DNA from: Bacteroidota bacterium
GTDB taxonomy: Bacteria > Bacteroidota > Ignavibacteria > SZUA-365
Direction of reading: 5' to 3'
Assembly (NCBI GenBank): GCA_035362335.1
Contig: DAOSDL010000005.1
Span: 12,708-76,707 of the forward strand
DNA length: 64,000 bases
Below, one piece after another: positions 1,712 through 55,666 of this stretch. The position numbers and the translations under genes are program-made. Numbering within the stretch: the stretch's first letter is position 1; the number at the start of each line of letters is the position of its first letter. The notes below the pieces were generated by a model. It worked only from the letters and a program-made list of their open reading frames with translations. It had not been told where the DNA came from and ran no database searches.

Positions 1712-1732
1712 AGTTCTCTCATCCCGGCCATA

Positions 1733-4862: not shown

Positions 4863-4937
4863 GCGTCCTCAGGTACTCGTTACAGGCGTGCGGGGAGTGC
4901 TTGGAAACGGGACCGGGCGGATGGCCGCGGCGAGCCC

Positions 4938-5462: not shown

Positions 5463-5472
5463 GCGAACCTCG

Positions 5473-10268: not shown

Positions 10269-10412
10269 AGATATTCCACAAACGGCGGACCGATGGCCCG
10301 CCGTTTTCTTTTCGAAGGAAAAGACCCGCGACTCCCGCGTTTGCGGAGTATGCGGATTTCATCGCATCTTACCTGCGAATGCGTCTCTCCTGTCACACCC
10401 GCGGACTCGACC

Positions 10413-12482: not shown

Positions 12483-12493
12483 GAGGCAGTGTC

Positions 12494-22822: not shown

Positions 22823-24372
22823 GCGCGGAACGCGTCATCAATGCGGCGGGACGCGAAGTTCTCACCGAGATCAACGGTGTGCCCGCCGTTCCCTATCAGG
22901 GCGTCGGCGCATACAAACCCTCTGGCCGCAAGGCCGCACCGCCGGTGTCGTCCTGTGCGGACTATCCGTCCGACGGCAACAAGGTGCTCCCGGGTTTGCG
23001 CGAAGCCCTGATCAACGCCGGACTGCGCGATGGCATGACCATTTCCAGTCATCATCATTTCCGCAACGGCGACCTGGTGGCGAATCAGGTGTTCGACATC
23101 GCGGCGGAACTGGGCGTGAAGGATTTGCGCTGGTTTCCTTCGGCCGCCTTCCCCTGCCACGAACCGCTGATCAAGCATCTCGAAAGCGGCGTGATCCATC
23201 ACATCGAGGGCTCGATGAATGGGCCGCTGGGCGATTACGCAAGCTCGGGCAGGATGCGCGGGCTGGGCGTACTGCGTTCGCACGGCGGCCGCTACCAGGC
23301 CATTCAGGATGGAGAAGTCCATATCGACATCGCGGTCATCGCCGCACCCACCTCCGATCCCTTCGGCAACTGCAATGGCGTGAACGGTCCCTCGGCCTGC
23401 GGAGGGTTGGGCTTCGCGCTGGCGGATTCGCAGTATGCGGACAAGGTGATTGTGGTCACGGACAACCTTGTCCCCTTCCCCTGTGTACCCTGGCAGTTGC
23501 ACGGCAATCATGTGGACAGCGTGGTGGTGCTGGACAAGATCGGCGAGCCCGAAAAAATCGTGAGTGGCACAACGGCCATCACGAAAAGTCCCGACCGTCT
23601 GCTCATCGCCGAACTCACCGCGCGTTTCTGCGATGCCGCCGGCATCGTGCGCGACGGCTTCTCCTTTCAGGCGGGTGCGGGTGGCACCGCCCTGTCCTTC
23701 GCCATCTTCCTGCGCGACATGATGCGCGAACGCCGCATCAAGGCGCGCTTCGTGCGCGGTGGAAGTACGCGCTACCTGGTCGACATGCTGGAGGAAGGGC
23801 TGACGGACTACATCCTCGACGGTCAGACCTTCGACCTCGCGGGCGTGCAATCCATGCGCGACAATCCGCGCCATATTCACAGCAATCCCTTCGTCAGCTA
23901 CAACTACCATGGCAAGGGCAATGTGGCCTCCATGCTCGATGTGGTGGTGTTGGGTGCGACGGAAGTGGATGTGCAATTCAACGCGAATGTGGTGTCGCAC
24001 AGCGATGGACGCTTGCTGCATGGCATCGGCGGATGGCAGAACTGTCTGTTCTCCAAATGCACCATTCTGCCCATCCCCAGCTTCCGCGACCGCATACCGG
24101 TGATTGTGGACCAGGTCACCACGCTGTGCGGTCCCGGAGAACTGATCGATGTGATCGTGACCGAGCGCGGCATCGCCATCAATCCCTTGCGTCAGGATCT
24201 CATCGACGCAACGCGGAACTCCGGGCTGCCCATTCGTCCGATCGAGGCCATCAAGGATGAAGTGGAATCGATGTGCGGCGGAGCGCCGGACAAGCCGCGC
24301 TTCATCGACAACTACATCGCCGCCATCAAATGGGTGGACGGTACGGTCATCGACATGGTGAAGCAGGTGTAG
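22819..24372 (+). CDS. citF: Citrate lyase alpha subunit (citrate CoA-transferase)
   Basis: About 517 aa from MSAERVINAAGREV. GAGGAGG ribosome-binding site, then an ATG at 22819 that overlaps the upstream stop as ATGA. CitF-family length and motifs. Confidence 0.88.
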   Translation: MSAERVINAAGREVLTEINGVPAVPYQGVGAYKPSGRKAAPPVSSCADYPSDGNKVLPGLREALINAGLRDGMTISSHHHFRNGDLVANQVFDIAAELGVKDLRWFPSAAFPCHEPLIKHLESGVIHHIEGSMNGPLGDYASSGRMRGLGVLRSHGGRYQAIQDGEVHIDIAVIAAPTSDPFGNCNGVNGPSACGGLGFALADSQYADKVIVVTDNLVPFPCVPWQLHGNHVDSVVVLDKIGEPEKIVSGTTAITKSPDRLLIAELTARFCDAAGIVRDGFSFQAGAGGTALSFAIFLRDMMRERRIKARFVRGGSTRYLVDMLEEGLTDYILDGQTFDLAGVQSMRDNPRHIHSNPFVSYNYHGKGNVASMLDVVVLGATEVDVQFNANVVSHSDGRLLHGIGGWQNCLFSKCTILPIPSFRDRIPVIVDQVTTLCGPGELIDVIVTERGIAINPLRQDLIDATRNSGLPIRPIEAIKDEVESMCGGAPDKPRFIDNYIAAIKWVDGTVIDMVKQV

Positions 24373-36233: not shown

Positions 36234-36572
36234 ACGTTCCTCCTGTGTTGGCTGCTGTCCAGCATTATTCAGAATGATACGAATATAAGGATTTCAATCG
36301 TGAATGCAACGCCTATCGCATTTCGATCAATGTTTACAGGCCTTCGCAACAGGTGCGTGCAATGCGCGCCGCGCGTACCCCACGGTGCATTGCATGGAAC
36401 GCATATAGGTGCTCACGCATCGCATGCATGTGTTACGGCCGTGGGGCAGGAAAAATGATAAGCGATAAAAATTTCCGTATCTTGCCGATGTGATCCACGG
36501 AACCCTTCAGCACGCGTCCGGGTTGTTGAGAAGCAACCGGACGTCGCACCTCCACCTTTGCGTTACACCTGT

Positions 36573-38003
36573 ATGACTCGTCCCACGCTCTTCATTATCC
36601 TCGCCCTTCTGCAAGGCGCTCCCGCATGCATGGCCCAGGGACATGCCGACCTCAACGCGACAGACGTGGCAGTCTCACAACGCGATCTGCTGCTGCATGT
36701 GCAGTGGCTCGCCGACGATGCGCGCGAGGGACGCGAGGTGGGTTCACCGGGCAACGATTCCGCCGCGTTGTACATCGAAAAGGTCTTCGCTCGTCATGGT
36801 CTGTTGCCCGCAGGTGCCGCCGGCTACACGCAGGACTTCGAATTTCAGTCGCCGACCCGACTGTTTGAACACGCGCTGAGCCAGTTGCTCTCCGATTCTT
36901 CGGGTGATGGCGCATCGGTGAATACCGAGGCACTGCAGGCCACGCTTTCGAATCTGCTGAATCCCACGGCCTCCGCGGTCGCACATGCGCCATCGTACGA
37001 AGGTTCGACATCGGGTCCCACCGCCACCATCGACGGAATACCGTCGCTGCGTGCGCGCAACGTCCTCGGTTTGATCCGCGGTACGGACGCGCTGCGGCGC
37101 GACAGCGTAATAGTGATCGGTGCGCATTACGACCATGTGGGCTGGGGAGGAATGAGTTCGCGCAATCCTGGAGGTCCCCCGGAAATTCACAACGGCGCCG
37201 ACGACAATGCTTCGGGCGTGGCGGCGATGCTTGAATTGGCGGAATACTTCGCCGCCAAACCCACGGGTTACTCGCTGCTCTTCATCGCATTCAGCGCGGA
37301 GGAGCACGGACTCATCGGCTCGAGATTCTGGGTGGCCAATCCCACCATTCCGCTCGGGCGCGTGGTCGCGATGCTGAACCTCGACATGATCGGACGTCTT
37401 TCGGAAGACAAGCGCGCGCTTACCGTGTACGGCATGCACAGCTCGTCCCGCTGGTCGCCACTGCTGGATCAGGTCAACACGGCGCATCGTTTCACCCTGC
37501 GGCGCCTTGCCGCGGGAGGCAGCAGCGATCACAGCTCGTTCATCGACGGCGGCATACCATCACTCTTCCTGTTTACCGGCTTGCATAAGGATTATCACAC
37601 GCCCACCGACGATGTGGAGAAATTGAACGTCGAGGGTCTGGAGCAGGTGAGTCGTTTCGCCGCCGACGTCCTCGCCGCCATTGATCGTGGGCCACGCCCG
37701 ACATTCAATACGGCGTCCACAGCAACCGCTTCTCCGGCGAGAAAGCCAGGGCTCGGCATTCGTCTCGATCATGCCTGGGCTGGCGAGGGGGTGCGCGTGT
37801 TCGCTGTGAAAAAGAACAGCCCCGCCGACAGCGCCGGACTGCGCGCGGGCGATGTGCTGCTCCGCGTGGGTTTCGAAGAAGTGGGAACGGTGGCCGAGTA
37901 CCTCCGGGCGATCGGGCAGGCGAGAGAAGACGCACCGCTTCCGTTGCGCATCAAACGTGGCGACGAGATCATCGTGCTGTCCATTCCGCAAGGGCAGCAT
38001 TGA
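36573..38003 (+). CDS. M28-family aminopeptidase with a C-terminal PDZ domain
   Basis: Zn ligands in GAHYDHVGWGG and NGADDNASG, plus FSAEEHGLIGS. PDZ motifs GIRLDHAWAGEGVRVFAV...GLRAGDVLL. ATG at 36573 (the track uses TTG at 36558). Confidence 0.85.
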   Translation: MTRPTLFIILALLQGAPACMAQGHADLNATDVAVSQRDLLLHVQWLADDAREGREVGSPGNDSAALYIEKVFARHGLLPAGAAGYTQDFEFQSPTRLFEHALSQLLSDSSGDGASVNTEALQATLSNLLNPTASAVAHAPSYEGSTSGPTATIDGIPSLRARNVLGLIRGTDALRRDSVIVIGAHYDHVGWGGMSSRNPGGPPEIHNGADDNASGVAAMLELAEYFAAKPTGYSLLFIAFSAEEHGLIGSRFWVANPTIPLGRVVAMLNLDMIGRLSEDKRALTVYGMHSSSRWSPLLDQVNTAHRFTLRRLAAGGSSDHSSFIDGGIPSLFLFTGLHKDYHTPTDDVEKLNVEGLEQVSRFAADVLAAIDRGPRPTFNTASTATASPARKPGLGIRLDHAWAGEGVRVFAVKKNSPADSAGLRAGDVLLRVGFEEVGTVAEYLRAIGQAREDAPLPLRIKRGDEIIVLSIPQGQH

Positions 38004-38140
38004 CGCTGCCACCGGCGCGAGCCCCACTCCGCGAGTTTGAAGGAGTATTCGCAAGCTCCCGGGATTTTCGTACCAACGCATTGAAAAAAACTTGCTACAT
38101 TATTGAATTGCTGTTGTCACACATCATAGTTCGACATACC

Positions 38141-39913
38141 ATGAAGCGCGTTCTCCTGACACTCGGCTTGCTCGCCTCCTTCGCAATGACCCTTCACGCG
38201 CAGTCGGAGGAATCCCCCGAAATCACCGTGGAGGAACTCCGCCAGCATGTCGGTCGGCTGGCCTCCGACGACTGGATGGGACGCAAGCCCGGGCACAGCG
38301 GCTGTGACGAAGCCGCCGAGTACCTGCGCGATCATCTGCGCACGGCGGGAGTGACAATGCTGGGTGAGGACGGCTTTCAGAATTTCGATATCACCACCGA
38401 CATGCTGCCTTCGCCCGATTGCGCCGCGCGCGTGGGCGACGCCGCGTTGGTAATGGACAAGGATTTTCGGCCCGTGGTGTTCTCGGGCAATGCAACGCTC
38501 AAGGCGCGTGTGCTGTGGGTGGGCTACGGTTTCGATTTTGAAAAGGATAAAAGCACGTGGCGGGATTACGAAGGCCTCGATGTGAAAGGTGCCTGGGTGC
38601 TGATTCTGCGCGGAAGCCCCGACGATAAGAGTGGTGATTACGATCCGTGGTCGTCGCTGCGCGCCAAGGCGCTCGCCGCGCGCGACAAGGGCGCCGCCGG
38701 CGTACTCTTCGTGTCCGGCCCCGTCGGCGACAAGGACGACAAGCTGGTCGATGTCCGCTGGCAGATGCAGGACACACCGATGGATATTCCCTTGTTGAGT
38801 ATTTCGCGCGGCGTTGCCGATCGGCTGCTCGATGGCGCAACCGTCGCCGAGTTGGAGGCGCGCCTCATCGCCGGCAAGCAGCCCGTGCGCTGCGCCACCA
38901 AGGGCGAGGTCGATGCCACCGTGCGCATGCTGCCCAAGACCATCACGACGCGCAATGTCATCGGCGTGGTGGAGGGAAGCGACGCCGCGTTGAAGGACGA
39001 GTACGTGCTCATCGGCGCGCATTACGATCATCTGGGCATGGGCGGTCCGGGCAGCGGCTCGCGCCGTCCCGACACCGTGGCAGTGCACAATGGCGCCGAC
39101 GACAACGCCTCCGGCACCGCAGCCGTGATGGAAATTATGGAACGGGTCGCCGCCTACAGGAATGAATTCCGTCGCAGCGTACTGGTGGCATTGTTCAGCG
39201 CCGAGGAAATGGGGTTGGTCGGATCGAAGGAGTATGTGAACAATCCGCCGGTGGATCTCAAGAAGGTCACGCTCATGTGCAATCTCGACATGGTGGGACG
39301 CCTCGACACCGCCCGCGCGATCAGCGTTGGAGGCACGGGCACGGCCAAGGATTTGAACATCATCGTCGAGGCCGCGGCGCGGCAGCATCAACTGCGCGCG
39401 ACCATGTCGCCCGAGGGCTTTGGGCCCTCCGATCATGCCGCATTTTATTCAAAGGACATCCCGGTGCTGTTTTATTTCACCGGCGTGCACGACGACTACC
39501 ATACGCCGTTCGACGACGCGGAGTTGATCAATTACGACGGACAGAAAATCGTGGCCGACATGGTCTTCGATGTGCTGCGTGATGCGGGCGGCCGCGATAG
39601 CCGACTCGTCTTCCAGGAAGCGGGCCCCAAGTCGCGTCCGCAAGGCGCGGCACGCTACAAGGTGACGCTCGGCATCATGCCCGATGTGTCTGGTGGCGAC
39701 GGCAAGGGCTTGCGCGTGGACGCGGTGATGAAGGATAGGCCCGCCGAGCGCGCGGGTTTGAAGAAGGGCGATGTGATCGTCAGCATGGAAGGAAAAAGTG
39801 TCACCGGCGTGTACGACTACATGGCGCGGCTCGGTGAATTCAAGGTGGGGCAGCGCATCAGCGTCGAGGCCCTGCGTGACGGCAAGCGTCACGTGTTTAT
39901 TGTCGAACTCTAA
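38141..39913 (+). CDS. M28-family peptidase with a PA-like insert and a C-terminal PDZ domain (paralog of the upstream gene)
   Basis: ATG at 38141 (MKRVLLTLGLLASFAMTLHAQ signal peptide). Motifs GAHYDHLGMGG, HNGADDNASGTA, FSAEEMGLVGS. PDZ segment GIMPDVSGGDGKGLRVDAV...GLKKGDVIV. Confidence 0.85.
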   Translation: MKRVLLTLGLLASFAMTLHAQSEESPEITVEELRQHVGRLASDDWMGRKPGHSGCDEAAEYLRDHLRTAGVTMLGEDGFQNFDITTDMLPSPDCAARVGDAALVMDKDFRPVVFSGNATLKARVLWVGYGFDFEKDKSTWRDYEGLDVKGAWVLILRGSPDDKSGDYDPWSSLRAKALAARDKGAAGVLFVSGPVGDKDDKLVDVRWQMQDTPMDIPLLSISRGVADRLLDGATVAELEARLIAGKQPVRCATKGEVDATVRMLPKTITTRNVIGVVEGSDAALKDEYVLIGAHYDHLGMGGPGSGSRRPDTVAVHNGADDNASGTAAVMEIMERVAAYRNEFRRSVLVALFSAEEMGLVGSKEYVNNPPVDLKKVTLMCNLDMVGRLDTARAISVGGTGTAKDLNIIVEAAARQHQLRATMSPEGFGPSDHAAFYSKDIPVLFYFTGVHDDYHTPFDDAELINYDGQKIVADMVFDVLRDAGGRDSRLVFQEAGPKSRPQGAARYKVTLGIMPDVSGGDGKGLRVDAVMKDRPAERAGLKKGDVIVSMEGKSVTGVYDYMARLGEFKVGQRISVEALRDGKRHVFIVEL

Positions 39914-39955
39914 ATGAAGAAAGGCGACGGTCTCGCTCCCGTCGAATAGATACGT

Positions 39956-42148
39956 ATGAAGCTGGGATGTACCGCGTCGGCGCGACGCGGAGCGTGCGCC
40001 GTGGCGCTGCTCGTCCTTCTCGCACCTCTTCTCCACGCGCAAACAGGCAGCATACACGGCACGGTCGTGCTCGAGGATCTGCCTCGCGGCGTGGCGGGTG
40101 TGAATATCGTCATTCCCGGCGGCACGCACGGGACTATCACCGACACGCGCGGTGCCTTCACCATCCCTGATGTGCCCGAAGGTGTGTACCGCGTCCGTGC
40201 TTCCTATATCGGCTACGCTCCGGTGCTGCGCGACAGCGTGCGCGTCCGTGCCGGCGAACGCACGGAGTTGCGCATCGTGCTCACCTCCTCGCCCTTCCTT
40301 CTCGACGAAGTAGTGGTGACGGGTACGCTCAATCAGCATTTGCTCAAAGACAGCCCGGTACTGACCGAGGTGATGTCGTCGCGGGATTTGCGCATGGTGG
40401 GCAGTTCCGATCTCGCGGATATCATGCGTTCGCACACGGGCATCGAAATCGGCACAGGCATCGGACAGACGCAGAGTGCGCAGTTGCACGGCCTGAGCGA
40501 CAATCACGTCCTTGTGTTGGTGGATGGCGAACGGGTGACGGGCAAGGTGGATGGCGCGGTGGATCTCGGGCAGATTCCCGTGCAGGCCATTGAAAAAATC
40601 GAAGTGGTGAAAGGCCCGTTGTCCGCGAAGTACGGCACCGATGCCATCGGTGGTGTGATCAACATCATCACACGCAAGGCGGGCGAGGGTAGCCGCGCAA
40701 CAGTGGCCGCGCATGTGGGCGGCTACGAGCGCCGCGATATCGAGGCGAGTGCTTCGCACAGCGTGACGGACGCGTTCGGCGCGGGCAGCATGCTCGGCGT
40801 ATTCGTGAATGCCGCGTGGAATTCCTTCGGCGGCGTGGATTACAACGCGTCCGACAATTTCATGGAAATGCCCGAGCGCGACCGCAAGCATGTGGGAGTA
40901 AAAACGGACATGCGCATCTCGGATGCGCTGTCCTTCGATTTGCGTGGCGAGTACTACCGCGACCGCAGCGAATGGCTCGCCGGCAATCCGAGCGTGTTCT
41001 TCCGCGACATCGCCGGAAATGACAAATGGACCGGCACGGCGTCGGCCCGTTACGCATTCTCGCCCCTGACCTCGCTTTCCGCCACGGCGCATGTTTCCAC
41101 CAACGACCACAGTTCCATCGAGGAATCGCGTTCGGGCAACAGATTGCGCGATGATGCTTCCAAGGAGCGGATAGAAACCGCACGCCTGCAATTCGCGACA
41201 GCGCCGTACGGCAACAGCATCGTCACCCTTGGCTATGAATACACCGCCGAGCGCGCCGAAAGCGACCGGCTCGACAATCGCAGCAAGGCGTATTACAACA
41301 ACGTGCTCTACGCGGAGGACGAATGGTCGATGGGACCGGTGATGATTTCGGTGGGCGGGCGCTTTTCGCACAACAGCGTGTACGGCAACTTCTTCGCGCC
41401 GCGTGTGAGCGGCGTGTGGAAGGTGGATGAACAACTCACCTTGCGCGCTTCGTACGGACGCGGTTTCCGCGCGCCGAGCATCAACGAACTGTACATCGAT
41501 TTTCCCAACAACGGCGTGGGTTATATCGTGAAGGGCGAACCCACGTTAAAAGCTGAATCCTCGCACGGCTACAACGCCGGACTGCAATACGCGCGCGACA
41601 ACCTGGTGTGGCTGCGTGTGAACGCGTACCGCAACGACCTGACCAATCTCATCGACTACTACGTGCGCTCGGGTAATCCCATCACGCTGTCGTACCGCAA
41701 CATCGCCACCGCCGTCACCATGGGGGTGGATGTGGACATCGACATGCAACTGCACTCCTCGCTGCTGCTCGGCGCGGGGTATGGCTATACGGTGGCGGAG
41801 GATGGGGCCGGGCGCGACCTGCCGTTCCGCACGCCGCATTCCCTGACGCTGCGCCTGCGGCACGACTGGGCGATGACGGGACTGCGCACCTTCGTACGCG
41901 CGCGGTGGTTCGACCGCAAACTCGTGACCGACGAGCAGATCAACCTTTCCATTTACACTGGAGGCGGGGATGCGAAATTCTTCCATACGCCCGCATACGC
42001 CGTGGTGGATGTGCGCTTCTCCCGCGTGCTCTTCGACCGCCTCGAAGTTTCGGCGGGCGTACACAATGCCACCGATCAAACCTTCTATCCCTTCGGGCAG
42101 ATCAAGGGACGCGAATGGTTTGCCGGCGCGACCTGGACCATCGAATGA
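39956..42148 (+). CDS. TonB-dependent outer-membrane receptor with an N-terminal carboxypeptidase-regulatory-like domain
   Basis: Signal peptide. CarbopepD_reg-like segment (GSIHGTVVLED...GVYRVRASYIGY). Plug domain, beta-barrel, and a C-terminal aromatic residue. Confidence 0.85.
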   Translation: MKLGCTASARRGACAVALLVLLAPLLHAQTGSIHGTVVLEDLPRGVAGVNIVIPGGTHGTITDTRGAFTIPDVPEGVYRVRASYIGYAPVLRDSVRVRAGERTELRIVLTSSPFLLDEVVVTGTLNQHLLKDSPVLTEVMSSRDLRMVGSSDLADIMRSHTGIEIGTGIGQTQSAQLHGLSDNHVLVLVDGERVTGKVDGAVDLGQIPVQAIEKIEVVKGPLSAKYGTDAIGGVINIITRKAGEGSRATVAAHVGGYERRDIEASASHSVTDAFGAGSMLGVFVNAAWNSFGGVDYNASDNFMEMPERDRKHVGVKTDMRISDALSFDLRGEYYRDRSEWLAGNPSVFFRDIAGNDKWTGTASARYAFSPLTSLSATAHVSTNDHSSIEESRSGNRLRDDASKERIETARLQFATAPYGNSIVTLGYEYTAERAESDRLDNRSKAYYNNVLYAEDEWSMGPVMISVGGRFSHNSVYGNFFAPRVSGVWKVDEQLTLRASYGRGFRAPSINELYIDFPNNGVGYIVKGEPTLKAESSHGYNAGLQYARDNLVWLRVNAYRNDLTNLIDYYVRSGNPITLSYRNIATAVTMGVDVDIDMQLHSSLLLGAGYGYTVAEDGAGRDLPFRTPHSLTLRLRHDWAMTGLRTFVRARWFDRKLVTDEQINLSIYTGGGDAKFFHTPAYAVVDVRFSRVLFDRLEVSAGVHNATDQTFYPFGQIKGREWFAGATWTIE

Positions 42149-42221
42149 TTCGACAACGGCGCCGCTGTGTGCGCCGAGGCATGCATGTTCATTCTCATCG
42201 TTTCACTGAAAGGATCGTTCC

Positions 42222-43202
42222 ATGAAATACTTCCGTACACTGCTCCTGTTGGGGCTGACTCTCACGCTGTTTTCGGCGTGCAGCGACGACGACGACAGCG
42301 GCAACAATCCGCAGCCCACACAGAACCCAAGCTACACCTCGGGGAATGTGAAGAGCGGCGCCATCTACTATAGTTTCGATCAGGAGAAGGAAAGCATCCA
42401 GTGGGATGTGAAATTCGGCTCCTACACCATGCCCGGCTCTCCCGTGGCCATTCCGATGTTTCTGCTCAACGATGCGAAACTCGGTAACAGTTACGTGCGC
42501 ATTTACAACAGCGAGGCCACCGCACTCGATGCCGTGACCACGGTGGATGCCGGCAAACTCGGCACTGATGTGCAACGGCTTGTGCAGGGCGCCAATTGGT
42601 TCGATTATAATCCACTCACGCATCAGGTGTCGTCCAAAGGCCAGGTGTATGTGGTCGAAGCGTCGAACGGCCACATGGTGAAATTCCGCATCGACAGTTT
42701 CGATCAGACGCAGAACAGCTTTGCCTTGTCCTATGCGCATTACGACATGAGCACCAGCACCTGGGGCATGGTGATGCAGTCCACGGTGAACATCGCCGCC
42801 GGTGAGAAACTGTTCAGTTTCGCGAAAGGCGAAGTTGCCGTGCAGCCCTGGGATGTGAAGCTCACCGTGCTTTCCGTACCCACGCCCATTGGTCCGATGA
42901 ATTTCCCCGGCATCGTGCTCAACGGCGCCGCCGGCGTGAAAGCCGCAATCGTCAACGGCACACCCTTTGCCGATGTGAATGCCGCCACAGTCGCGCCCCT
43001 GCTTGCCGACGGTGATACCACCTACGTGATCGGTACGACCTGCCTGAACTACGACGAGAATTCTCATCGCCTGTCGCCGTTCACCGATCGCACCTTCGTT
43101 GTGCAGAGCACATCCGGCAAGCGGTACAAATTCCGTATGCTCGGCTACTACAACGATCAGGGTCTGAGTGGTTTCATGAAATTCGAGTATGTGAAACCCT
43201 GA
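42222..43202 (+). CDS. HmuY-family-like lipoprotein (putative haem/tetrapyrrole-binding partner of the flanking receptors)
   Basis: Lipobox LTLFSAC followed by DDDDSGNN. 326 aa. Sits between two TonB-dependent receptors. The family assignment is by context and composition only. Confidence 0.5.
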   Translation: MKYFRTLLLLGLTLTLFSACSDDDDSGNNPQPTQNPSYTSGNVKSGAIYYSFDQEKESIQWDVKFGSYTMPGSPVAIPMFLLNDAKLGNSYVRIYNSEATALDAVTTVDAGKLGTDVQRLVQGANWFDYNPLTHQVSSKGQVYVVEASNGHMVKFRIDSFDQTQNSFALSYAHYDMSTSTWGMVMQSTVNIAAGEKLFSFAKGEVAVQPWDVKLTVLSVPTPIGPMNFPGIVLNGAAGVKAAIVNGTPFADVNAATVAPLLADGDTTYVIGTTCLNYDENSHRLSPFTDRTFVVQSTSGKRYKFRMLGYYNDQGLSGFMKFEYVKP

Positions 43203-43222
43203 CCCTCGGCGGACAATGAAGC

Positions 43223-43279
43223 ATGGAGGGATGTGCCGCGCTCGATGCGCACGGCCATCCCTCCATTCGATTTTTCTCG
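43223..43279 (+). terminator. Hairpin plus T-tract after the lipoprotein gene
   Basis: atggagggatg ... catccctccat (22-nt loop with an inner stem), then tcgatttttctcg. Confidence 0.5.
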
Positions 43280-43492
43280 ACATAGCGCCGGATCCTTGTA
43301 AATGGGATATTGGGTGTCTGAAAAAGATTTCGTAGGTTGTTACAGGCATGGCCGCCTGGAGAACGGCCGTGATGGGAGAGGCAGGATGTCACAGCAACCC
43401 TGTGCCCACGGGTGCGGGGCGAAGCCGGATCACGCGCGTTGTGCTTTCCGCGTGTCCCTGTGTACATTCACTGCAACAAGGTGTTGATTGCC

Positions 43493-45781
43493 ATGCGTAC
43501 CCTTTCCATTGTCATGCTGATACTGTTCGCCACGAGTTCGCGCGCCCTGTTGGCGCAGCACGCGGCGATTTCCGGTACCGTCACTTCGTCGGATGGCGCG
43601 CCGCTGTCTGCGGCGCATGTTGCGCTGCCGGATGCGCTGCGCGGCGTGGTGGCGGACGAGCAGGGCAGGTTTTACATTTCCGGCGTCGAAGCCGGGCGGC
43701 AGCGCCTGCGCGTGACGCATGTAGGTTTTCGCGTCGAGGAACGCGAAATCGTTGTGGAGCAGGGCGCGACGCTGCGCCTGACCATTACGCTGCAACCGAC
43801 AACAGTCGACATGGGCGAAGTGCGTGTGAGCGCCACGCGCTCGGAAGAACTCGTGCGCAATGTGCCCTTGCCCATGCAGGTCGCCGTGTCCGAACAGCTC
43901 CTGCGCGCCCCCTCGGTGGGCATCGCCGACGCGCTGGACGCGCAACCGGGTGTGGCGTTGATTCGCGATGGCGTGTGGGGTACGGATGTCAGCATACGCG
44001 GACTTGGGCGCAGCAATGTGGTCACACTCGTGGATGGCGCCCGCATCGAAACCGCCACCAATCATGCCGCCGGCCTGAGTCTGGTCGACATCAACGATGT
44101 GGATCGCGTGGAGGTGATTCGCGGCGCGGCGTCCACGCTGTACGGAAGCGGCGCCACCGGCGGTGTGGTGAACATCATCAGCGGCAGCGGACATTACAGC
44201 GACGCATTCCGCTTCAGTGGCGCGCTTGGATCCGGTTACGGCAGTGCAAACAACGGCGCTACTGGAACGCTGGCACTTGATGCCTCGGCCACGCAGTGGT
44301 TCGCGCGGCTGAGCAGTACACTGCGCAGCGCCGAAGACGTGCGCACACCGCTCGGCACGCTGCGCGACAGCCGGTATCACGACCATGCGCTGTCCGCTTC
44401 GGCGGGCTTGCGCCCATGGGATGGGCAGGAAGTGAGCGCACGCTATCAACGCGTCCGCGCCGAGGATGTGGGCATTCCGGGAGGAGCATCCTTTCCGGCG
44501 AACGCCAGCGCGCGCTATCCGATGGAGGAACGCGAACTCTTCACCGCCGCATGGACGTCCACCGCGCCTCTGCCGGCCGTGCGGCAACTCACGCTGCGCT
44601 ACGTGCATCAGCTCATCGAGCGCGATGTGGAACTGCGCTCCTCTCCCGTGGTGACGCTGCGTCCCTCGGCCGAGCACAGCATGCACGGTGTGCAGCTCCT
44701 CGGCAATCTGCGCTTCGGCGAGCGCCACAACATCAGCAGCGGCGTGGATGCCTGGCAGCGCCGCTACACCGGACGACGTCTGCGCGAGAATGCGGCTACC
44801 AAGACCACGGTGGCCGACATGCCTCTTCCCAACGCCACATTCCGCAGCATCGGTGTGTTCGCGCAAGATGAAATCGCGCTGTTCGACGGCGCAACGCGCA
44901 TCACCGTTGGCGGCCGCGCCGATCTGATCCATGTGTGGAACGACGAGGCCTACAACATTCTCTACATCGAAAGCAATGGCGTGCGCAACACCGCTCCGCC
45001 TTCGCGCGTGCTGCGATGGACCGCCGCGGAAGGGCAGGATGTGTCCTGGAGCGCCTATGCTGGCGTGCTGCACCGTGTGAGCGGCGCGTTGGATCTCACG
45101 CTCAACCTCGCGCGTTCCTTCCGCGCACCCGCGCTGGAGGAGCGCTACCAGTACATCGAGCTGGGCGGATCGACGTATATCGGTGATCCCGATCTGGCAT
45201 CCGAACAGGCCACCGCGCTGGATCTCGGCGTGCGTTTGCGCCACGAGCGCGTGAGTGTCACCGCCAATGCCTTCGCGAATTTCATGAACGATCTCGTGGT
45301 GGATCGGCAAGTACTCGACACGCTGTACGTGAAAGACAACGTGGGCGAAGCGCGATTGCTGGGTGGAGAACTTGGCGTGGAGTACAATCCCGTCGCGCGC
45401 TTCGTGCTCTACGGTACGCTCTCGTACGTGCGTGGTCGTGACACAGGCAAGGACAGCGATCTGCCGGCGATTCCGCCGCTCACCGCCGTCGCCGGACTGC
45501 GCCTGCCGCTGTGGGATCTGGGACATGCGGACGTATCACTTATGGCGACGGATGATCAGGAGCACGTGGCGACGGGAGAGAAGAGCACGCCGGGCACCGC
45601 GGTGGTAAACGCACGTCTGCGGTCGAACACCCTGCGCTTCGCCGGGTTGGGCGTGCAACTGTTCGCCGGTGTGGAGAATCTCTTCGATCGCGCCTGGCGT
45701 CGACATATTTCGACGCTGCGCGGATTGGTGAATGTGGAGCCCGGGCGCAATGTGTATGTTCGCGTGCGCATGCTGTGGTGA
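43493..45781 (+). CDS. TonB-dependent outer-membrane receptor
   Basis: ATG at 43493 (MRTLSIVMLILFATSSRALLAQ). CarbopepD_reg-like N-terminus, plug (IRGLGRSNVVTLVDGARIE), barrel, and terminal W. Confidence 0.85.
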   Translation: MRTLSIVMLILFATSSRALLAQHAAISGTVTSSDGAPLSAAHVALPDALRGVVADEQGRFYISGVEAGRQRLRVTHVGFRVEEREIVVEQGATLRLTITLQPTTVDMGEVRVSATRSEELVRNVPLPMQVAVSEQLLRAPSVGIADALDAQPGVALIRDGVWGTDVSIRGLGRSNVVTLVDGARIETATNHAAGLSLVDINDVDRVEVIRGAASTLYGSGATGGVVNIISGSGHYSDAFRFSGALGSGYGSANNGATGTLALDASATQWFARLSSTLRSAEDVRTPLGTLRDSRYHDHALSASAGLRPWDGQEVSARYQRVRAEDVGIPGGASFPANASARYPMEERELFTAAWTSTAPLPAVRQLTLRYVHQLIERDVELRSSPVVTLRPSAEHSMHGVQLLGNLRFGERHNISSGVDAWQRRYTGRRLRENAATKTTVADMPLPNATFRSIGVFAQDEIALFDGATRITVGGRADLIHVWNDEAYNILYIESNGVRNTAPPSRVLRWTAAEGQDVSWSAYAGVLHRVSGALDLTLNLARSFRAPALEERYQYIELGGSTYIGDPDLASEQATALDLGVRLRHERVSVTANAFANFMNDLVVDRQVLDTLYVKDNVGEARLLGGELGVEYNPVARFVLYGTLSYVRGRDTGKDSDLPAIPPLTAVAGLRLPLWDLGHADVSLMATDDQEHVATGEKSTPGTAVVNARLRSNTLRFAGLGVQLFAGVENLFDRAWRRHISTLRGLVNVEPGRNVYVRVRMLW

Positions 45782-46741: not shown

Positions 46742-47734
46742 ATGTTAGGGCAGTGGTTTTCTCTCGCGCGGAAAGGAGTTGTTGCATCGCCCATGGGTGA
46801 CGGGCACCATCATCATCATCACCATCACGAGCGTGACAGCGCTCGCGACATCGGGTTGGCGTTTTTCCTCAACCTCGGTTTCGCGATAGCGGAGATCATC
46901 GGCGGCATACTCACCAACAGTCTCGCCATACTCTCCGACGCGTTGCACGATTTTGGCGACAGTCTGATTCTCGGTGTGAGTTGGTTGCTGGAGCGCCGCG
47001 CGCGGCGTGCGCCCACCGCGAGGTACAGCTATGGCTATCGCCGCGTGTCGCTGCTCGGCGCGTTCGTGAATGTGGTGGTGCTCGTGGCGGGTTCGGTGTA
47101 CATCATCACCGAAGCCATACCGCGAATCCTGCATCCGCAGGACACCGATGCGGTGGGCATGATGTGGTTCGCCATCGCCGGTGTGCTGATCAACGGTCTG
47201 GCGGCGTTACGCCTCCGCGGCTCGGGATCGATGAACGCACGCGTGGTGGCCTGGCATTTGCTCGAGGATGTGCTGGGCTGGACCGCCGTGCTGGTGGTGA
47301 GTATTGTCATGCAGTTCACCTACCTGCCCGTGCTCGATCCGCTGCTTTCGCTGCTCATCGCCACGTACATTCTGTACTACAATGTGGCGGTGAATTTGTA
47401 CCGGACTGTGCGTCTGTTCTTGCAGGCGGTGCCCGAGAGCATTGATCTCGACGAGTTGCGGCGACGCATTCTCGCCATCGACAAGGTGCGCGCGGTACAT
47501 CACGCGCATGTGTGGTCGCTCGACGGCGCGCAGCATGTGCTGTCGGCGCATGTGGTGGTGGCCGCCGGAGTGGACAAAGCCGAGGTCATCGGCATCAAGC
47601 AGCGCATCAAGCAGGATTTGCTCGGTGAACACATCGAGCATCTCACCATCGAGATCGAGTACGAGGACGAGGACTGCATCATGGGTTCGACCTGGAACGG
47701 TGCCGCAGCCGGCACCACGACGAGCGAGGAATAA
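46742..47734 (+). CDS. Cation-diffusion-facilitator (CzcD/ZitB-like) metal efflux transporter with an N-terminal His8 tract
   Basis: CDF signature ([15 protein letters not shown]). HHHHHHHH at the N-terminus. An alternative start MGDGHHHH at 46793 follows a GAAAGGAG ribosome-binding site. Confidence 0.82.
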
Positions 47735-48546
47735 TGGATACGACGCATCTCTTTTTCGCCTTCGGGCTCACGGTGTTTGCCGGCCTGTCCACCGGCATCG
47801 GCAGTGCCCTGGCGTTTTTCGCAAAGCGCACCAACACCCGCTTTCTCTCCCTGTCCATGGGATTTTCCGCGGGTGTGATGATTTACGTGTCGATGGTGGA
47901 AATCTTCGTCAAGGCCAAGGATTCGCTTATCGAAGCGCTGGGCGTGACGGGCGGCAACTGGGCCACTGTCGGCGGATTTTTCGGAGGCATCGCTCTCATT
48001 GCGGTCATCGACAAGCTCGTGCCTTCCGGCGATAATCCGCATGAGATGCGCATGGTGGAGGAAATTCCCGCGGCCGGAGCGCAGCCCGACATGCGCCGGC
48101 TTATGCGCACGGGCATGTTCTCGGCCATCGCCATCGCCATACACAATTTTCCCGAAGGGCTGGCCACCTTTCTCTCCGCCATGAAGGATCCCACGCTCGG
48201 CATTCCCATCGCCGTGGCCGTGGCAATTCACAATATTCCCGAGGGTATCGCGGTGAGCATTCCGGTGTTCTACGCCACCAACAACCGCAAGCGCGCCTTT
48301 CTGCTTTCCTTCGGTTCGGGGCTCGCCGAACCCGTAGGCGCCATCCTCGGCTATTTCATCCTGCTGCAATTCTTCAGCGACGTCGTCTTCGGCATCGTCT
48401 TCGCTTCCGTGGCGGGCATCATGGTTTTCATTTCCCTGGACGAACTACTCCCCGGCGCCCGCGAGTACGGCGAACATCACCTCGCGATCTACGGTCTCAT
48501 TGCCGGCATGGTGGTGATGGCGATCAGCTTGCTGCTCTTTGTCTGA
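47734..48546 (+). CDS. zupT: ZIP-family zinc transporter
   Basis: 270 aa. Repeated HNFPEGLA / HNIPEGIAV metal-binding motifs. The start overlaps the CDF stop (TAATG). Confidence 0.88.
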
Positions 48547-50887: not shown

Positions 50888-51868
50888 TTACTGCTTTCGC
50901 AGCATGACGAGCGGTATTGTTCGCATGCTGCGCTCTGTCAGAGCGGTGCAATAATATTGGCCGTTCGCAAGGCCGCGAGTGTCGAAGCGGATATCGTGCA
51001 CGCCGGTGCCGAGGCGTCCATTGTGAAGAATTCGCAGCACCCGACCCTGCACGTCGTGGACGAACAGTCGCAATGATGCTCTTTCCACAGCATCGACATG
51101 TATCACTGCATCCGCGCTCGATGGATTTGGATAGCATGACAGATGGACGCCGTACGGCGGAGCTTCGGGCTTGTCAACCGCAGGCGTAGCGGTAAGAATG
51201 TAGCGCTCATCCGAACTCCAGTCGAAGAAATTGAAGGTGTACAAGCGGATTTCGTGCAGTCCCCCGTGTCGAGAGACAAGCAATTCCCTGCTTACAGCGT
51301 TGTCCAGGCAATCCGTCCACAGCGTACGCAGATGCAGGTACCCGTCGCGCTCATCCATCGAATCCGCCGGGGTGGGTGAGTAGTAGCGATACATGCGGGC
51401 GTAAGGATAGAGGAGAGCGGTATCCGGTATGTCCGGACAGGGCGGCGAGTTCCACACCGTATCCGGAAACATCCAACCGCGCAACGAATTCGTTCCCGCA
51501 CCCTCGCCGTCGCCCACGGTCTCGATGATGGTGTCCCGCGTCACGACGTCCACCATTTGTTGAGAAACAATGCGCCGCGAGGTCCTGATGGTTTCCACAC
51601 CGCGCTTCCTGAGTTCCAGACCGTGGATAATCGCCGATCCGTCCGGTGTGGCATGTTCTTCGCTTCGAATCAGGACTGTCCCGTCAAACTCTGTAAACTG
51701 CGACACTGTATCACCTCCCATGAATGTCGAAGGGATGCCAGCACGAGTCAGACGAAAGGTGCGTTCATCTCCCCAACCAGGTCCCAGCAGATCATAGCTC
51801 TGTGCCGCGCCGGGCCTCGGCAGCAGGAGAAACGCAAGTAGCGCGGGAAGAAGGGGCATCTTCTTCAT
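50888..51868 (-). CDS. Secreted protein with a type-IX-secretion C-terminal sorting domain
   Basis: Signal peptide MKKMPLLPALLAFLLLPRPGAAQ. The C-terminal about 80 aa (LSCYPNPSSADAVIHVD...GVHDIRFD...GQYYC...) fit the T9SS C-terminal domain pattern. Confidence 0.7.
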   Translation of the reverse strand: MKKMPLLPALLAFLLLPRPGAAQSYDLLGPGWGDERTFRLTRAGIPSTFMGGDTVSQFTEFDGTVLIRSEEHATPDGSAIIHGLELRKRGVETIRTSRRIVSQQMVDVVTRDTIIETVGDGEGAGTNSLRGWMFPDTVWNSPPCPDIPDTALLYPYARMYRYYSPTPADSMDERDGYLHLRTLWTDCLDNAVSRELLVSRHGGLHEIRLYTFNFFDWSSDERYILTATPAVDKPEAPPYGVHLSCYPNPSSADAVIHVDAVERASLRLFVHDVQGRVLRILHNGRLGTGVHDIRFDTRGLANGQYYCTALTERSMRTIPLVMLRKQ

Positions 51869-52185
51869 TTCAGCTCCTGGGATGTGTCATCAGCTTGCAC
51901 AAATATAGGGACGCCATGGTCCGCTTGCATCAGCATCGAACGATGCGGCGTTCCGGGCGATCCGCGCAGGAATGACACTTCAGCATGCCCATGCATTCCT
52001 TCGTCCGATAACAATGTTGCTTCGGGACTCGATGCTGTCTGCTCGGCAACGTCCTCGGTGATACAGGGAGATCGGCACTGCTAAGTCCATCGGCATCCCG
52101 GAAAAACAAAGCGCGGACGAAATCGCCCGCGCTTTGTGAAAAATCCGCATTTCGCTATCCGCGAAATGAGATCCGGAATCCGCAA

Positions 52186-53778
52186 TTACCGCACGACCAT
52201 CATGCTGCGCGTTTCCACGGCGCTCGAAGTTTCGAGGCGGTACAGATACGTGCCCGCCGCGAGTTGCGTGGGGGAGAAACGCACCTGATGCGCACCCGGC
52301 GGCAGCACTCCGTCCACCAGCGTTTTCACCAGCTTGCCCTGTATGTTGTACACGGCGAGACGCGTCTGTCCGCCCGTCACCTGGAAGCCGATGGTCGTCC
52401 CGCCGTCGCGCGATGCTGCGAACGGATTCGGATAATTCTGCTCCAGAGCGAAGCCCGCCGGCAAGCCGCGGCCGCTCACGCCCACCGGCGCCTGTACGAA
52501 CAGCGGCAGGGGATCCCACTCGCCTTTGAGAATCAGCGCCGCGTCGCTCTGCTTCACGCCGAACCATTGCCGCAGCACGCTGGCGTAGGTCTGCTTGAAA
52601 TCGTATTGCTGCTTGATATCGCCGTTGCGATCCAGATCCGCGAGATCCGGATTGTGCCCGTACACACCGCCGTGTACTTCGGGACCCACGAAGAGCATAG
52701 GCGCGGCAGTGCCGTGATCGGTGCCCGCGGTGCCGTTGGCCTCCACACGTCGACCGAATTCGGATATCGTCATCAGCGCCACGCGTTGATCGAGGCCGAA
52801 GCGCTTGAGGTCCTCGAAAAACGCGCCGATGGCCGAGGACAAGGCGCCGAGCAATTGCGTGTGCCGCGGCGTCGCCCCGTTGTCCTGCTGCGCATGCGTA
52901 TCGTAGCCCTTTTGCGACACCACGTAAATGGGTGTGTCCAGGCCGCCCGCGATCAGTCGCGCCACGATTTTCAAACGCTCGGCCACATCATTGCCCGTCG
53001 GATACACATCGTTGTTCTGCACTGTGTTTGCCGCGTCGCGCACCGGCTTGGCGTAGTGATTGGCCTCCAGAGCGATGTTGCGAATGTACTCCAGCTCGAG
53101 CCCGGCCGGGGTGCTGGTGTCGGGCGGGTCGCCACCGCTGATGTCCGTGCCGGAGATGATGCGGTAAAATGTTTCGGGATCGTAAATCGCCATGCTCATG
53201 CCCACCTCCGGACCCTGCATCATCAGCGAGGTGGTGGTGCCGATCTCGATGGCCAGAGGATGCGCCGGCGTGGCCGAGGGATCGGGGTAACCGGGGAAGC
53301 GGTGGTCGAGATAGCGGCCGAGCCAGCCGTCCTCGAGAAAGGTGTACTGGTCGGACGGCGACTTGTTGTTGCTCCCCGTGAACCAGATGTCGGTCGAACG
53401 GAAGTGGCTGCGATTCGGATTCTCGTATCCCACATTCTGCACCACCGCTAATTTGCCTTCGCCGTGCAGCGCGTGCAGATGGCTGAGCGCGGGATGCAAA
53501 CCCAAGGTATCATTGAGCTTCAGCGGATTGGCGATGGCCAGGCTTCCGCGCGCGTTCTGATACAGACTGTCTTCGAAGGGCACGACGGTGTTGAGGCCGT
53601 CGTTGCCGCCGTCGAGTTGAATCACCACCAACACACGCCCCGTGCCCGCGCTCATGGCGGCGCGCGCCAGCGAAGGAGCGTTCGCGTACGCCTTGGCCGC
53701 GAAGGGACGGGAGAGGCCGATGGTGCTCGTCACGATACCGGCGGTGACGCCGGACTTTACGAAATCTCTGCGTTTCAT
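52186..53778 (-). CDS. DUF1501 (sulfatase-like) protein with an N-terminal twin-arginine signal and a C-terminal T9SS sorting domain
   Basis: Tat-like motif MKRRDFVKSG. DUF1501 core. The C-terminal about 90 aa (EQNYPNPFAASRD...LAVYNIQGKLVKTL...GTYLYRLET) are T9SS C-terminal-domain-like. Confidence 0.82.
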   Translation of the reverse strand: MKRRDFVKSGVTAGIVTSTIGLSRPFAAKAYANAPSLARAAMSAGTGRVLVVIQLDGGNDGLNTVVPFEDSLYQNARGSLAIANPLKLNDTLGLHPALSHLHALHGEGKLAVVQNVGYENPNRSHFRSTDIWFTGSNNKSPSDQYTFLEDGWLGRYLDHRFPGYPDPSATPAHPLAIEIGTTTSLMMQGPEVGMSMAIYDPETFYRIISGTDISGGDPPDTSTPAGLELEYIRNIALEANHYAKPVRDAANTVQNNDVYPTGNDVAERLKIVARLIAGGLDTPIYVVSQKGYDTHAQQDNGATPRHTQLLGALSSAIGAFFEDLKRFGLDQRVALMTISEFGRRVEANGTAGTDHGTAAPMLFVGPEVHGGVYGHNPDLADLDRNGDIKQQYDFKQTYASVLRQWFGVKQSDAALILKGEWDPLPLFVQAPVGVSGRGLPAGFALEQNYPNPFAASRDGGTTIGFQVTGGQTRLAVYNIQGKLVKTLVDGVLPPGAHQVRFSPTQLAAGTYLYRLETSSAVETRSMMVVR

Positions 53779-53806
53779 GGCTGTGTCCTCATTCCTTGTG
53801 CGTGGA

Positions 53807-55402
53807 TCAACAGAGCTGCGATTCGCTCAACCGCAACACGGCCTTGAGCAAATCCTTGATGCGGCCATCGGCGCCGGGGAGGTTGACATTCCACTCGTAC
53901 TCCGGTGCGCCCGCGAGGAGCTTGTCGAGCAGAATCTCGAATTGATTTGTGCTGAGCTTCAGCGGCACAAGGTAGGCGATGAGGTCCGCGATCATCTGCC
54001 GCGCATTGTTCGGATCGGGGAGCGAAGACACGAAGGGGATGGGATCCACGCTGAACTTGGGTGTGGTGCGCATAGTGCCCAGCACCAGTTCGTCGGACAC
54101 CGACCAGCGATTGGCCAGGCGACTCGCGCTGATCCAGTTGCGATACCCCGGCCAGCCTTTCACATTGGGCGCTTCCAGCAACTGGCAGCCCAGCGCCGAG
54201 CACACCTGATAGAGGTAGCGCACGTTGGTGGTGCTGATGTTGAGCTGGCGAATGCTTCCGATGTAAAATTCCAGCGGCGAGGTGATGTGCGCGCCGATGT
54301 TGGCACTCTCGAAGAAATGCTCGCTCTTGAGCAGCGTATCCATCACTGGCCGTATCGACCAATTGTTGGCAATGAGTATGCCGGCGAGTTCATCGATGAT
54401 GGTTTCGTCGGCGATTTCATACACGAATTCGCGATAGAGTTTGCGGCAAATGAAACGCGCCACTTCGCGCTCATGCACTTCGAAAATGATGTTGAGAATG
54501 TCCTCGTAACCGAAGGTCCCCGTGCGGCCCATGAAGGTTTTGCTCGTGGCATCGTGTCTGTTGGCAATGAACACGGCCTCGCGGGGATGATACATCTTCG
54601 TGCCGGCGGGACTGGTGCCGGTTTCCTTGATAGTCCAACCGGACAGTGCCCGGGCGGCCTCCTTGATGTCCTGCTCGGTGTAGCCGTTTCCCTCGCCCAG
54701 CGTGTGCAGTTCCATCAACTCGCGTGCGTAGTTCTCGTTGGGACGCTGCCGCGTGTTATACCAGCCATCGAGGTAAATCAACATCGCCGGTGCGATGGTG
54801 ACGTCCTTGACCATCTGCTTGAAATTGCCGAGGAAATTCCGACGGAAAAGATCCACGAACCAGTAGTTGAAATGCGGCTGCCGTACCGTGGTGGATTCGG
54901 TGGCCCAGTGGTCGGACCAGAAAAACGTCATCTTCTCGCGAATCGACCTGTCCTGGTTGAGCATCAATCCCGTCCACCAATCGCGCAAGGCGGCGAGGCG
55001 CTCGACATTCGTGCGATCATTGTTCGAGTTGTCGTACCAGTAATCTTCGTCCACCCATGGCCCGGGAGCCGAGGGGAGGGACGAGTCCGCGAGGAGAATG
55101 TCCACCATCTCGGAAGGTGTTTTGCTCAGCGCGAAATCGATGTCCGCGCGCGTTGCGCCGAACATGCAGCGCCGTAACAGATACCCCGCGCGCTGCCGGT
55201 CCCAGGGTTTCTGCGCCGAAGGGATGTAGGGTGTCAATCCCGCCAGAATCAAACGGGGCAGGGGCACGGGTTCGGGCAGTCCCTTCAGACTTGCCTCGCG
55301 CTCGGCCAGCGCGCTTTTGTGCAGACGCGCCGCGGCCGCCCTTGCGGCGCCGGGACTGTCATGTCGAGACCGCATGGCATCGTTGGTAACGGAACGTTCC
55401 AT
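53807..55402 (-). CDS. DUF1800 protein (partner of DUF1501)
   Basis: AAGGA ribosome-binding site, then ATG at 55402 (MERSVTNDAM...). The track ORF extends spuriously to 55600. Conserved WFWSDHWATE and ELHTLG motifs. Confidence 0.78.
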   Translation of the reverse strand: MERSVTNDAMRSRHDSPGAARAAAARLHKSALAEREASLKGLPEPVPLPRLILAGLTPYIPSAQKPWDRQRAGYLLRRCMFGATRADIDFALSKTPSEMVDILLADSSLPSAPGPWVDEDYWYDNSNNDRTNVERLAALRDWWTGLMLNQDRSIREKMTFFWSDHWATESTTVRQPHFNYWFVDLFRRNFLGNFKQMVKDVTIAPAMLIYLDGWYNTRQRPNENYARELMELHTLGEGNGYTEQDIKEAARALSGWTIKETGTSPAGTKMYHPREAVFIANRHDATSKTFMGRTGTFGYEDILNIIFEVHEREVARFICRKLYREFVYEIADETIIDELAGILIANNWSIRPVMDTLLKSEHFFESANIGAHITSPLEFYIGSIRQLNISTTNVRYLYQVCSALGCQLLEAPNVKGWPGYRNWISASRLANRWSVSDELVLGTMRTTPKFSVDPIPFVSSLPDPNNARQMIADLIAYLVPLKLSTNQFEILLDKLLAGAPEYEWNVNLPGADGRIKDLLKAVLRLSESQLC

Positions 55403-55666
55403 CGCAATCGTCCTTGTTGTGAATGCCGGGAAGATTTCAGATAGGACATGATATGTCCGAAAAGGTTGAATGTCAAGATGCACCCGGGAGATCGCAGTGG
55501 GCACAGAGGCGGGCAACTCCCGGGGCGAGAGGTATGCACCGTACGCACGCGCGCACAACGCCGCCACTGCCGCGATGTGCGGAAAAAGCGTAGATTTCAC
55601 TCATGAGCACCGTTCGCATTGTTCCACAATAGCGGCACGCAGCACACCCGCAACACCGTCACACTC

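Follow-up and report, generated by a model that had tools for sequence, protein, structure and literature searches.

A DUF1800–DUF1501 gene pair of the Ignavibacteria with a predicted twin-arginine signal and a type IX sorting domain on the DUF1501 protein

[quoted passage not shown] This route is the closest precedent for the locus described here, a DUF1800–DUF1501 gene pair at positions 52186–55402 of a 64-kb stretch of DNA from a Bacteroidota bacterium of the class Ignavibacteria (contig DAOSDL010000005.1; G+C content ≈ 61%; the whole stretch is called the window below). The DUF1501 protein of this pair combines a predicted Tat signal with the type IX secretion system's (T9SS's) C-terminal sorting domain. 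The outer-membrane step would here be made by T9SS by means of a discrete C-terminal domain, not by T2SS.

[quoted passage not shown] The system moves folded proteins and its sorting domain is reported to be sufficient for secretion; phyla of the Fibrobacterota–Chlorobiota–Bacteroidota (FCB) group are reported to hold T9SS genes, and proteins with sorting domains track the presence of T9SS (PMC11285876). A preliminary description of the locus had called the combination of Tat and T9SS rarely discussed. This agrees with the reviews, which give the Sec route, and with T9GPred, which discards candidates that have a Tat signal (PMC10515386). Our literature searches on Tat and T9SS found no paper on a Tat-dependent T9SS cargo.

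Canonical T9SS type A cargo (RgpB, ChiA and the 8glj/8glk domains) resembles the DUF1501 protein in its C-terminal β-sandwich of ≈ 80 residues, which matches TIGR04183, in its FCB-group hosts, and in the modular extracellular architectures found among DUF1501 relatives. Unlike such cargo, which has Sec signals, DUF1501 has a conserved twin-arginine (RR) signal and an obligate operon partner without a sorting domain. DUF1501 proteins elsewhere have already been predicted to be Tat substrates (PMC5122149; PMC3542564). The DUF1501 modules of Planctomycetes and Verrucomicrobia, which have PSCyt/PSD partners, and the DUF1800–DUF1501 pairs of Proteobacteria share with our locus the domain, the RR motif and the occurrence in conserved pairs (PMC3542564; PMC5122149). 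They end after the core, whereas the FCB clade adds a T9SS tail and sometimes lectin, PA14, dockerin or immunoglobulin-like (Ig) modules. With moderate confidence, we read the locus as encoding an NPP/PafA-like DUF1501 enzyme that would be exported by Tat and then secreted by T9SS.

Twin-arginine motif, sorting domain and core of the DUF1501 protein

The DUF1501 gene (52186–53778, − strand) encodes 530 amino acids followed by a stop codon. Its product matched the hidden Markov model (HMM) of Pfam DUF1501 (PF07394) with an E-value of 1.2e-25 (90.9 bits; cutoff 27), and an entry 100% identical to it is present in the database (P0001). The DUF1800 gene (53807–55402, − strand; 531 amino acids and a stop codon) matched Pfam DUF1800 (PF08811) with an E-value of 2.1e-104 (350.4 bits; cutoff 26.1). 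Both matches are above cutoff, and the pair named in the preliminary description is therefore real.

The predicted Tat signal peptide occupies residues 1–30 of DUF1501 (53689–53778, − strand) and consists of MKRRDFVK, the core SGVTAGIVTSTIGLS and a basic c-region, R..AAKA. Residues 2 to 8 (K-R-R-D-F-V-K) agree with S/T-R-R-x-F-L-K, the consensus for Tat signals. Weakly hydrophobic and rich in Gly, Ser and Thr, the core is a run of 15 uncharged residues. As a yardstick for a Tat core (weakly hydrophobic, uncharged, at least about 13 residues, AxA site) we used thresholds of the TATFIND type, not the output of a tool, and the peptide agrees with them. The c-region, RPFAAKA followed by YA, places a basic residue ahead of the AxA site, and signal peptidase I would likely cleave after AKA at residue 30. 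A basic residue in the c-region is a Sec-avoidance feature; of the 177 relatives whose site resembles AxA, 119 have one at −2. In the AlphaFold2 (AF2) model, residues 1–44 are disordered.

The motif, whose presence had been noted before, is canonical and strongly conserved. Among 257 relatives, which are only ≈ 40% identical overall, the successive motif positions were occupied by R (99%), R (95%), F (96%), L/I/V (95%) and K/R/Q (77%). In an alignment of 62 relatives (40–80% identical), R3 and F6 were invariant and R4 and A30 were at least 90% conserved. The signal core varies freely among the relatives; R3 and F6 match the catalytic residues in their invariance. Judging by these alignments, the conservation of R-R-x-F-[LIV] is not due to chance and the motif is under strong selection. 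An RR motif followed by a real hydrophobic core was found in 75 of 81 copies from species genomes, and the uncharged run averaged 17.6 residues over 75 copies; the remaining copies are RK or KR-type variants. We infer that the N-terminus is a Tat signal and that the protein would use the Tat route.

The other end of the protein (residues 449–530; 52189–52434, − strand) is a T9SS type A C-terminal sorting domain with the motifs YPNPF, VYNxxGKxV and GTYxYRL. TIGR04183 (Por_Secre_tail) matched residues 449–528 of 530 with 31 bits (cutoff 23) and also matched all of the 62 aligned relatives. Furthermore, 56, 51 and 27 of the 62 also matched the tails of T9SS-dependent proteases (M6, M36) and of PorU. 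The AF2 model (predicted local distance difference test (pLDDT) 83.5) ends in a β-sandwich of six strands (residues 461–529, pLDDT 82–94), preceded by a flexible linker of low confidence (residues 433–438). When the family profile was compared with the PDB, the only sequence matches were the 75-residue T9SS C-terminal domains 8glj_D (E-value 0.06) and 8glk_D (E-value 0.8). The sorting domain always stood at the extreme C-terminus with its motifs kept, and in the best loci its distribution was restricted to the FCB group. These features suggest that DUF1501 would be a T9SS substrate. All four sequences on which the preliminary description had relied (KRRDFVKSG, NYPNPFAASRD, LAVYNIQGKL and GTYLYRLE) are present in the DUF1501 open reading frame (ORF).

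Between signal and tail lies a catalytic core of the alkaline-phosphatase superfamily (about residues 45–432; 52483–53646, − strand), which has an alkaline-phosphatase-type α/β fold in the predicted structure. The candidate metal and nucleophile residues D60 (in GGNDG), S124-H125 (NRSHFRSTD), D293/H295 (FDTHA) and D354-H355 (GTDHG) were invariant in 62 sequences, and they appear to follow the order of the two-metal ligands and the nucleophile of NPP-type enzymes. DUF1501 is thus probably NPP/PafA-like, with a bimetal site and a Ser nucleophile. Its identity to the two-metal phosphoesterases NPP, PafA and PhoK is 12–16%, and the profile search of the PDB revealed no sequence-level relationship of the core to any solved structure. 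NPP-type enzymes need no DUF1800-like partner.

Operon structure and distribution of the gene pair

The start codon of DUF1501 lies 28 nt downstream of the stop codon of DUF1800. We place the DUF1800 start at ATG 55402 because a database protein that is 98% identical (P0121, 531 amino acids) starts at this Met, because in-frame extensions 5' of it are not conserved among relatives, and because a promoter-like site lies inside the longer reading frame. A longer ORF from GTG 55600, with the Sec-like N-terminus MKSTLFPHIAAVAALCARAYG, was rejected on these grounds. The same start had been proposed earlier as a correction; the length of 532 amino acids given with it had counted the stop codon, and the product has 531. 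The promoter-like site, TTGACA-17-TATCAT (55448–55476, − strand), lies ≈ 46 nt upstream of the DUF1800 ATG and matches TTGACA-17-TATAAT at 11 of 12 positions. It is a match to a σ70-type consensus only, and the lineage may use other promoter types. Scanning 5.2 kb yielded three sites with at least 9 of 12 matches (1.8 expected).

Directly 3' of the DUF1501 stop codon are two tandem hairpins (52102–52168, − strand), the second of which has a 14-bp stem followed by UUUGUUUUU. Their minimum free energy was −46.5 kcal/mol (z-score −5.18), and none of 200 shuffled sequences folded equally well. The hairpins are likely an intrinsic terminator that closes a bicistronic operon, and from their position we conclude that DUF1800 and DUF1501 form a two-gene unit.

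The pair is conserved. We scanned species genomes (one genome per species) and obtained at least 596 loci, of which the best 80 were used for names and neighbourhoods. DUF1800 was directly upstream of DUF1501 in 77 of these 80, the other three being without upstream DNA, and the intergenic gap among relatives had a median of 20 nt. It is the pair that forms the conserved unit; the wider neighbourhood was kept only in the closest relative (L001).

Relatives of DUF1501 thus occur in at least 596 species genomes. The names attached to the best 80 loci belong to the FCB group, save two that are probably mislabelled, and cover Ignavibacteria, Chlorobiota, Kapaibacteriota, Chitinophagaceae, Cytophagales, Flavobacteriales, Saprospiraceae, Rhodothermales, Balneolaceae and Marinimicrobia. 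The nearest species-genome locus (78% identity) is in a metagenome-assembled genome of an uncultured member of the Ignavibacteria (L006). Among the top 120 database matches, almost all had PF07394 together with PF18962, and 116 had the RR motif. When 1.8 billion cluster representatives were searched exhaustively, 1,851 relatives were obtained at E ≤ 1e-30; in the top 149 of the representatives, RR motif and terminal sorting domain occurred together in 100. Judged across these sets, the architecture of Tat signal and T9SS tail is widespread in the family and not peculiar to the window.

About a dozen of the top 149 were short relatives (400–425 residues) in which the RR signal is retained but the tail is missing; one tail-less relative was also seen among the genome loci (L081). 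Since these short proteins retain the signal, the Tat signal is ancestral and the T9SS tail an addition made in the FCB-group clade. Longer relatives carry modules between core and tail: PA14 with a ricin lectin, Big_9/cadherin/fn3 repeats, or dockerin. Such insertions are typical of extracellular, polymer-binding proteins and point to an extracellular destination.

A separate observation concerns the N-termini that DUF1501 has in Rhodothermales and Balneolaceae. They have a His-rich extension of 25–45 residues before the RR motif, for example MPHRHAHHHHGHPHHGEHDHG...WTRRDFL (L033, L039, L048, L056, L078; P0082, P0101, P0308, P0361). The extension may be a metal-binding or regulatory addition to the Tat signal.

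Proposed route, the DUF1800 partner and alternative explanations

In the route that we propose, DUF1501 would fold in the cytoplasm, where it would probably take up its metal. The Tat translocase would recognise the RRxFVK signal and move the protein to the periplasm, and the signal would be removed at about residue 30. DUF1501 would then cross the outer membrane by T9SS, to be released or anchored at the surface, and would act outside the cell on a phospho- or sulfo-ester substrate, probably one associated with glycans. The route is mechanistically plausible because Tat-then-T2SS export has precedents, because T9SS moves folded proteins, and because the sorting domain is reported to suffice for secretion. 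The preliminary description had spoken of periplasmic folding and of Tat import. Both are wrong: Tat exports proteins already folded in the cytoplasm, and the earlier interpretation was for this reason only partly right.

Several results weigh against this route or against the enzyme class assigned to its cargo. Each of the 102 experimentally established T9SS cargo proteins in T9GPred has a Sec signal, and Tat signals are absent from the set (PMC10515386). The first 50 residues of the window copy were matched by neither TIGR01409 nor PF10518, even at E-values up to 10, so that HMMs for Tat signals did not recognise the N-terminus that had been described as one. In a Pfam scan of ≈ 55 genes of the window we found no tatA or tatC and no gene for T9SS machinery; the scan turned up nothing but housekeeping genes and genes for peptidases, TonB receptors and zinc transporters. 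The presence of both machineries in the source organism is therefore assumed from its relatives. For T9SS there are indirect pointers: a second protein with a sorting domain close to DUF1501, the Ignavibacteria label of the closest genome (L006), and the reported tracking of T9SS by such proteins. Applied to the sorting domain of the window copy, PF18962 stayed under its cutoff of 27 with 18.5 bits, and FlgD_ig scored nearly as much (16.4 bits). With TIGR04183 above and PF18962 below cutoff, the HMM result for the T9SS domain claimed earlier is mixed. The late His typical of NPP enzymes, their seventh metal ligand, had no invariant counterpart in the 62 sequences. No natural DUF1800–DUF1501 fusion occurred among the 149 representatives. 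Finally, in the library searched we found no paper that assigns a function to DUF1501 or DUF1800 and no functional study of any member.

The N-terminus of the window copy of DUF1800, MERSVTNDAMRSRH..., has neither a twin-arginine motif nor a hydrophobic core, and it aligns with the sequence MDRRSFL... of relatives. DUF1800 N-termini in fact form a series. At one end stand complete Tat signals, hydrophobic core included (P0145–P0159, L058), one of which scored 16.1 bits on PF10518 (P0145). In many copies, those of Chitinophagaceae for example, MDRRDFL leads into a charged stretch and a hydrophobic core is missing. At the other end, Ignavibacteria-type and Spirosoma copies start directly at the domain, with no extension in L003 and L005. 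In the clade of the window, the loss of the RR motif can be followed from MDRRSFL (P0126–P0142) through MDRKSFL (P0143, L006) to MERSV (window). The preliminary description had seen no sorting signal on DUF1800. None is present on the window copy, and a sorting tail was never present on the DUF1800 copies examined; the N-terminus, on the other hand, is a decayed twin-arginine motif rather than a simple absence.

Tat hitchhiker complexes have the RR signal on one subunit and a partner that lacks a signal or has a vestigial one; the small and large subunits of hydrogenase and MelC1-tyrosinase are examples. The pattern seen here, a signal always present on DUF1501 and dispensable on DUF1800, is the pattern of such complexes, and the decay or absence of the DUF1800 signal suggests that DUF1800 hitchhikes with DUF1501. 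As in hydrogenase and MelC1-tyrosinase, one subunit has the RR signal and a co-encoded partner has none or a vestigial one; in contrast to them, DUF1800 has its own complete Tat signal in some lineages, and the complex is putative. Signal-less DUF1800 would most likely bind DUF1501 in the cytoplasm and cross the inner membrane with it. We take hitchhiking to be the best reading of the DUF1800 sequences, with less confidence than we place in the Tat-then-T9SS route of DUF1501. A further step, in which T9SS would accept the folded, Tat-exported heterodimer and DUF1800 would ride across both membranes on the signals of DUF1501 in hundreds of FCB species, seems to us rather unlikely.

A motif of the form MDRR[DES]FL with a charged, non-hydrophobic stretch is present in many DUF1800 partners (L007–L047, P0126–P0144). 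Simple decay does not account for these N-termini, because the motif itself is retained.

DUF1800 could instead be a cytoplasmic maturation or proofreading factor, like the chaperones that bind the Tat signals of redox enzymes, with DUF1501 alone being exported. Many DUF1800 copies indeed have no signal, and the DUF1800 model is largely helical. The vestigial RR motif without a core in some copies also recalls the remnant Tat motifs of cytoplasmic proteins, of which NarG is one. However, the complete Tat signals on other copies (P0145–P0159, L058) mean that DUF1800 works outside the cytoplasm in those lineages. Moreover, ≈ 30 residues of DUF1800 are invariant, many of them polar, as in the motif NENxxRExxE, a pattern more suggestive of a site that binds a ligand or catalyses a reaction than of a chaperone. 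We therefore regard a purely cytoplasmic role of DUF1800 as doubtful.

It is unlikely, to a somewhat greater degree, that DUF1501 is an ordinary Sec-then-T9SS cargo which crosses the inner membrane unfolded and whose n-region merely holds two arginines. The Sec dependence of all characterised T9SS cargo, the failure of the Tat-signal HMMs on the window copy and the lack of tat genes within the window would fit such a protein. Yet the n-region of a Sec signal needs only positive charge, and here RR, Phe at +2 and an aliphatic residue at +3 are 95–99% conserved at ≈ 40% identity. TIGR01409 matched 18 of the 62 relatives at E ≤ 0.1 (best E-value 2.7e-4), and DUF1501 proteins outside the FCB group are predicted Tat substrates. 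The locus also offers an internal contrast. A gene 317 bp downstream of DUF1501 (50888–51868, − strand) encodes a protein of 326 amino acids with a classic, very hydrophobic Sec-type signal, MKKMPLLPALLAFLLLPRPGAA, followed by Gln at +1 as in the Q-rule of Bacteroidetes. This signal (MPLLPALLAFLLL) is far more hydrophobic than the core of DUF1501, which in addition has the basic c-region residue.

Least probable of the three is a Tat-exported pair that stays in the periplasm, as in bacteria without T9SS, its C-terminal β-sandwich being an Ig-like domain (FlgD_ig-like) with a role only in structure or binding and not a functional secretion signal: the low PF18962 score with its FlgD_ig near-equal, the tail-less relatives (L081 included) and the tail-less DUF1800 partner point that way, but TIGR04183 is above cutoff in the window copy and in 62 of 62 relatives, the tail is FCB-restricted and always at the extreme C-terminus with its sorting motifs, relatives with lectin, PA14, dockerin or Ig-repeat modules have tails scoring 28–46.5 bits on PF18962, and the sole sequence matches in the PDB are C-terminal domains solved as T9SS cargo.

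Surroundings of the operon and significance of the architecture

The 326-residue neighbour has a second T9SS-like C-terminal domain and no other Pfam domain. Its tail scored 17.7 bits on TIGR04183 (cutoff 23) and gave an E-value of 2.7e-14 with a family-specific HMM of the C-terminal domain. As a third member of the operon this gene was rejected: the terminator lies between it and DUF1501, and related loci lack it.

Cation-efflux (CDF) and ZIP zinc-transporter genes adjoin each other (46742–48546, + strand) at a distance of a few kb from the operon for the putative metalloenzyme; this arrangement is not kept at related loci. At 36558–45781 (+ strand), a pair of M28 peptidases that have PDZ domains precedes two TonB-dependent receptors, which flank an HmuY-like protein. 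Further away are citrate lyase genes (21602–24372, + strand), in which the acyl-carrier (gamma) domain is fused to a CitE-like beta subunit and followed by CitF, and two adjoining DUF3857 proteins, in which the additional domain is a transglutaminase core in one case and DUF3858 in the other (10293–14377, + strand). A cluster at 323–7397 (− strand) resembles the kynurenine/3-hydroxyanthranilate pathway. It encodes an FAD monooxygenase, a kynureninase (the C-terminal part of ORF 1733–3844), a cyclase/formamidase-like protein, an Amidohydro_2 protein (ACMSD-like), 3-hydroxyanthranilate dioxygenase, a RidA-family protein and an aldehyde dehydrogenase.

Two-step secretion itself is known; here a conserved RR signal and a T9SS sorting domain meet in one family. 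If the route from Tat to T9SS is real, both inner-membrane pathways would supply T9SS with substrates, as they do T2SS, and T9SS would handle cargo that is loaded with a cofactor and perhaps oligomeric. Predictions of T9SS cargo would then miss a whole class of proteins. For the long-uncharacterised DUF1501/DUF1800 pair, the analysis provides a working model, in which an NPP/PafA-like esterase would act outside the cell and have an obligate partner.

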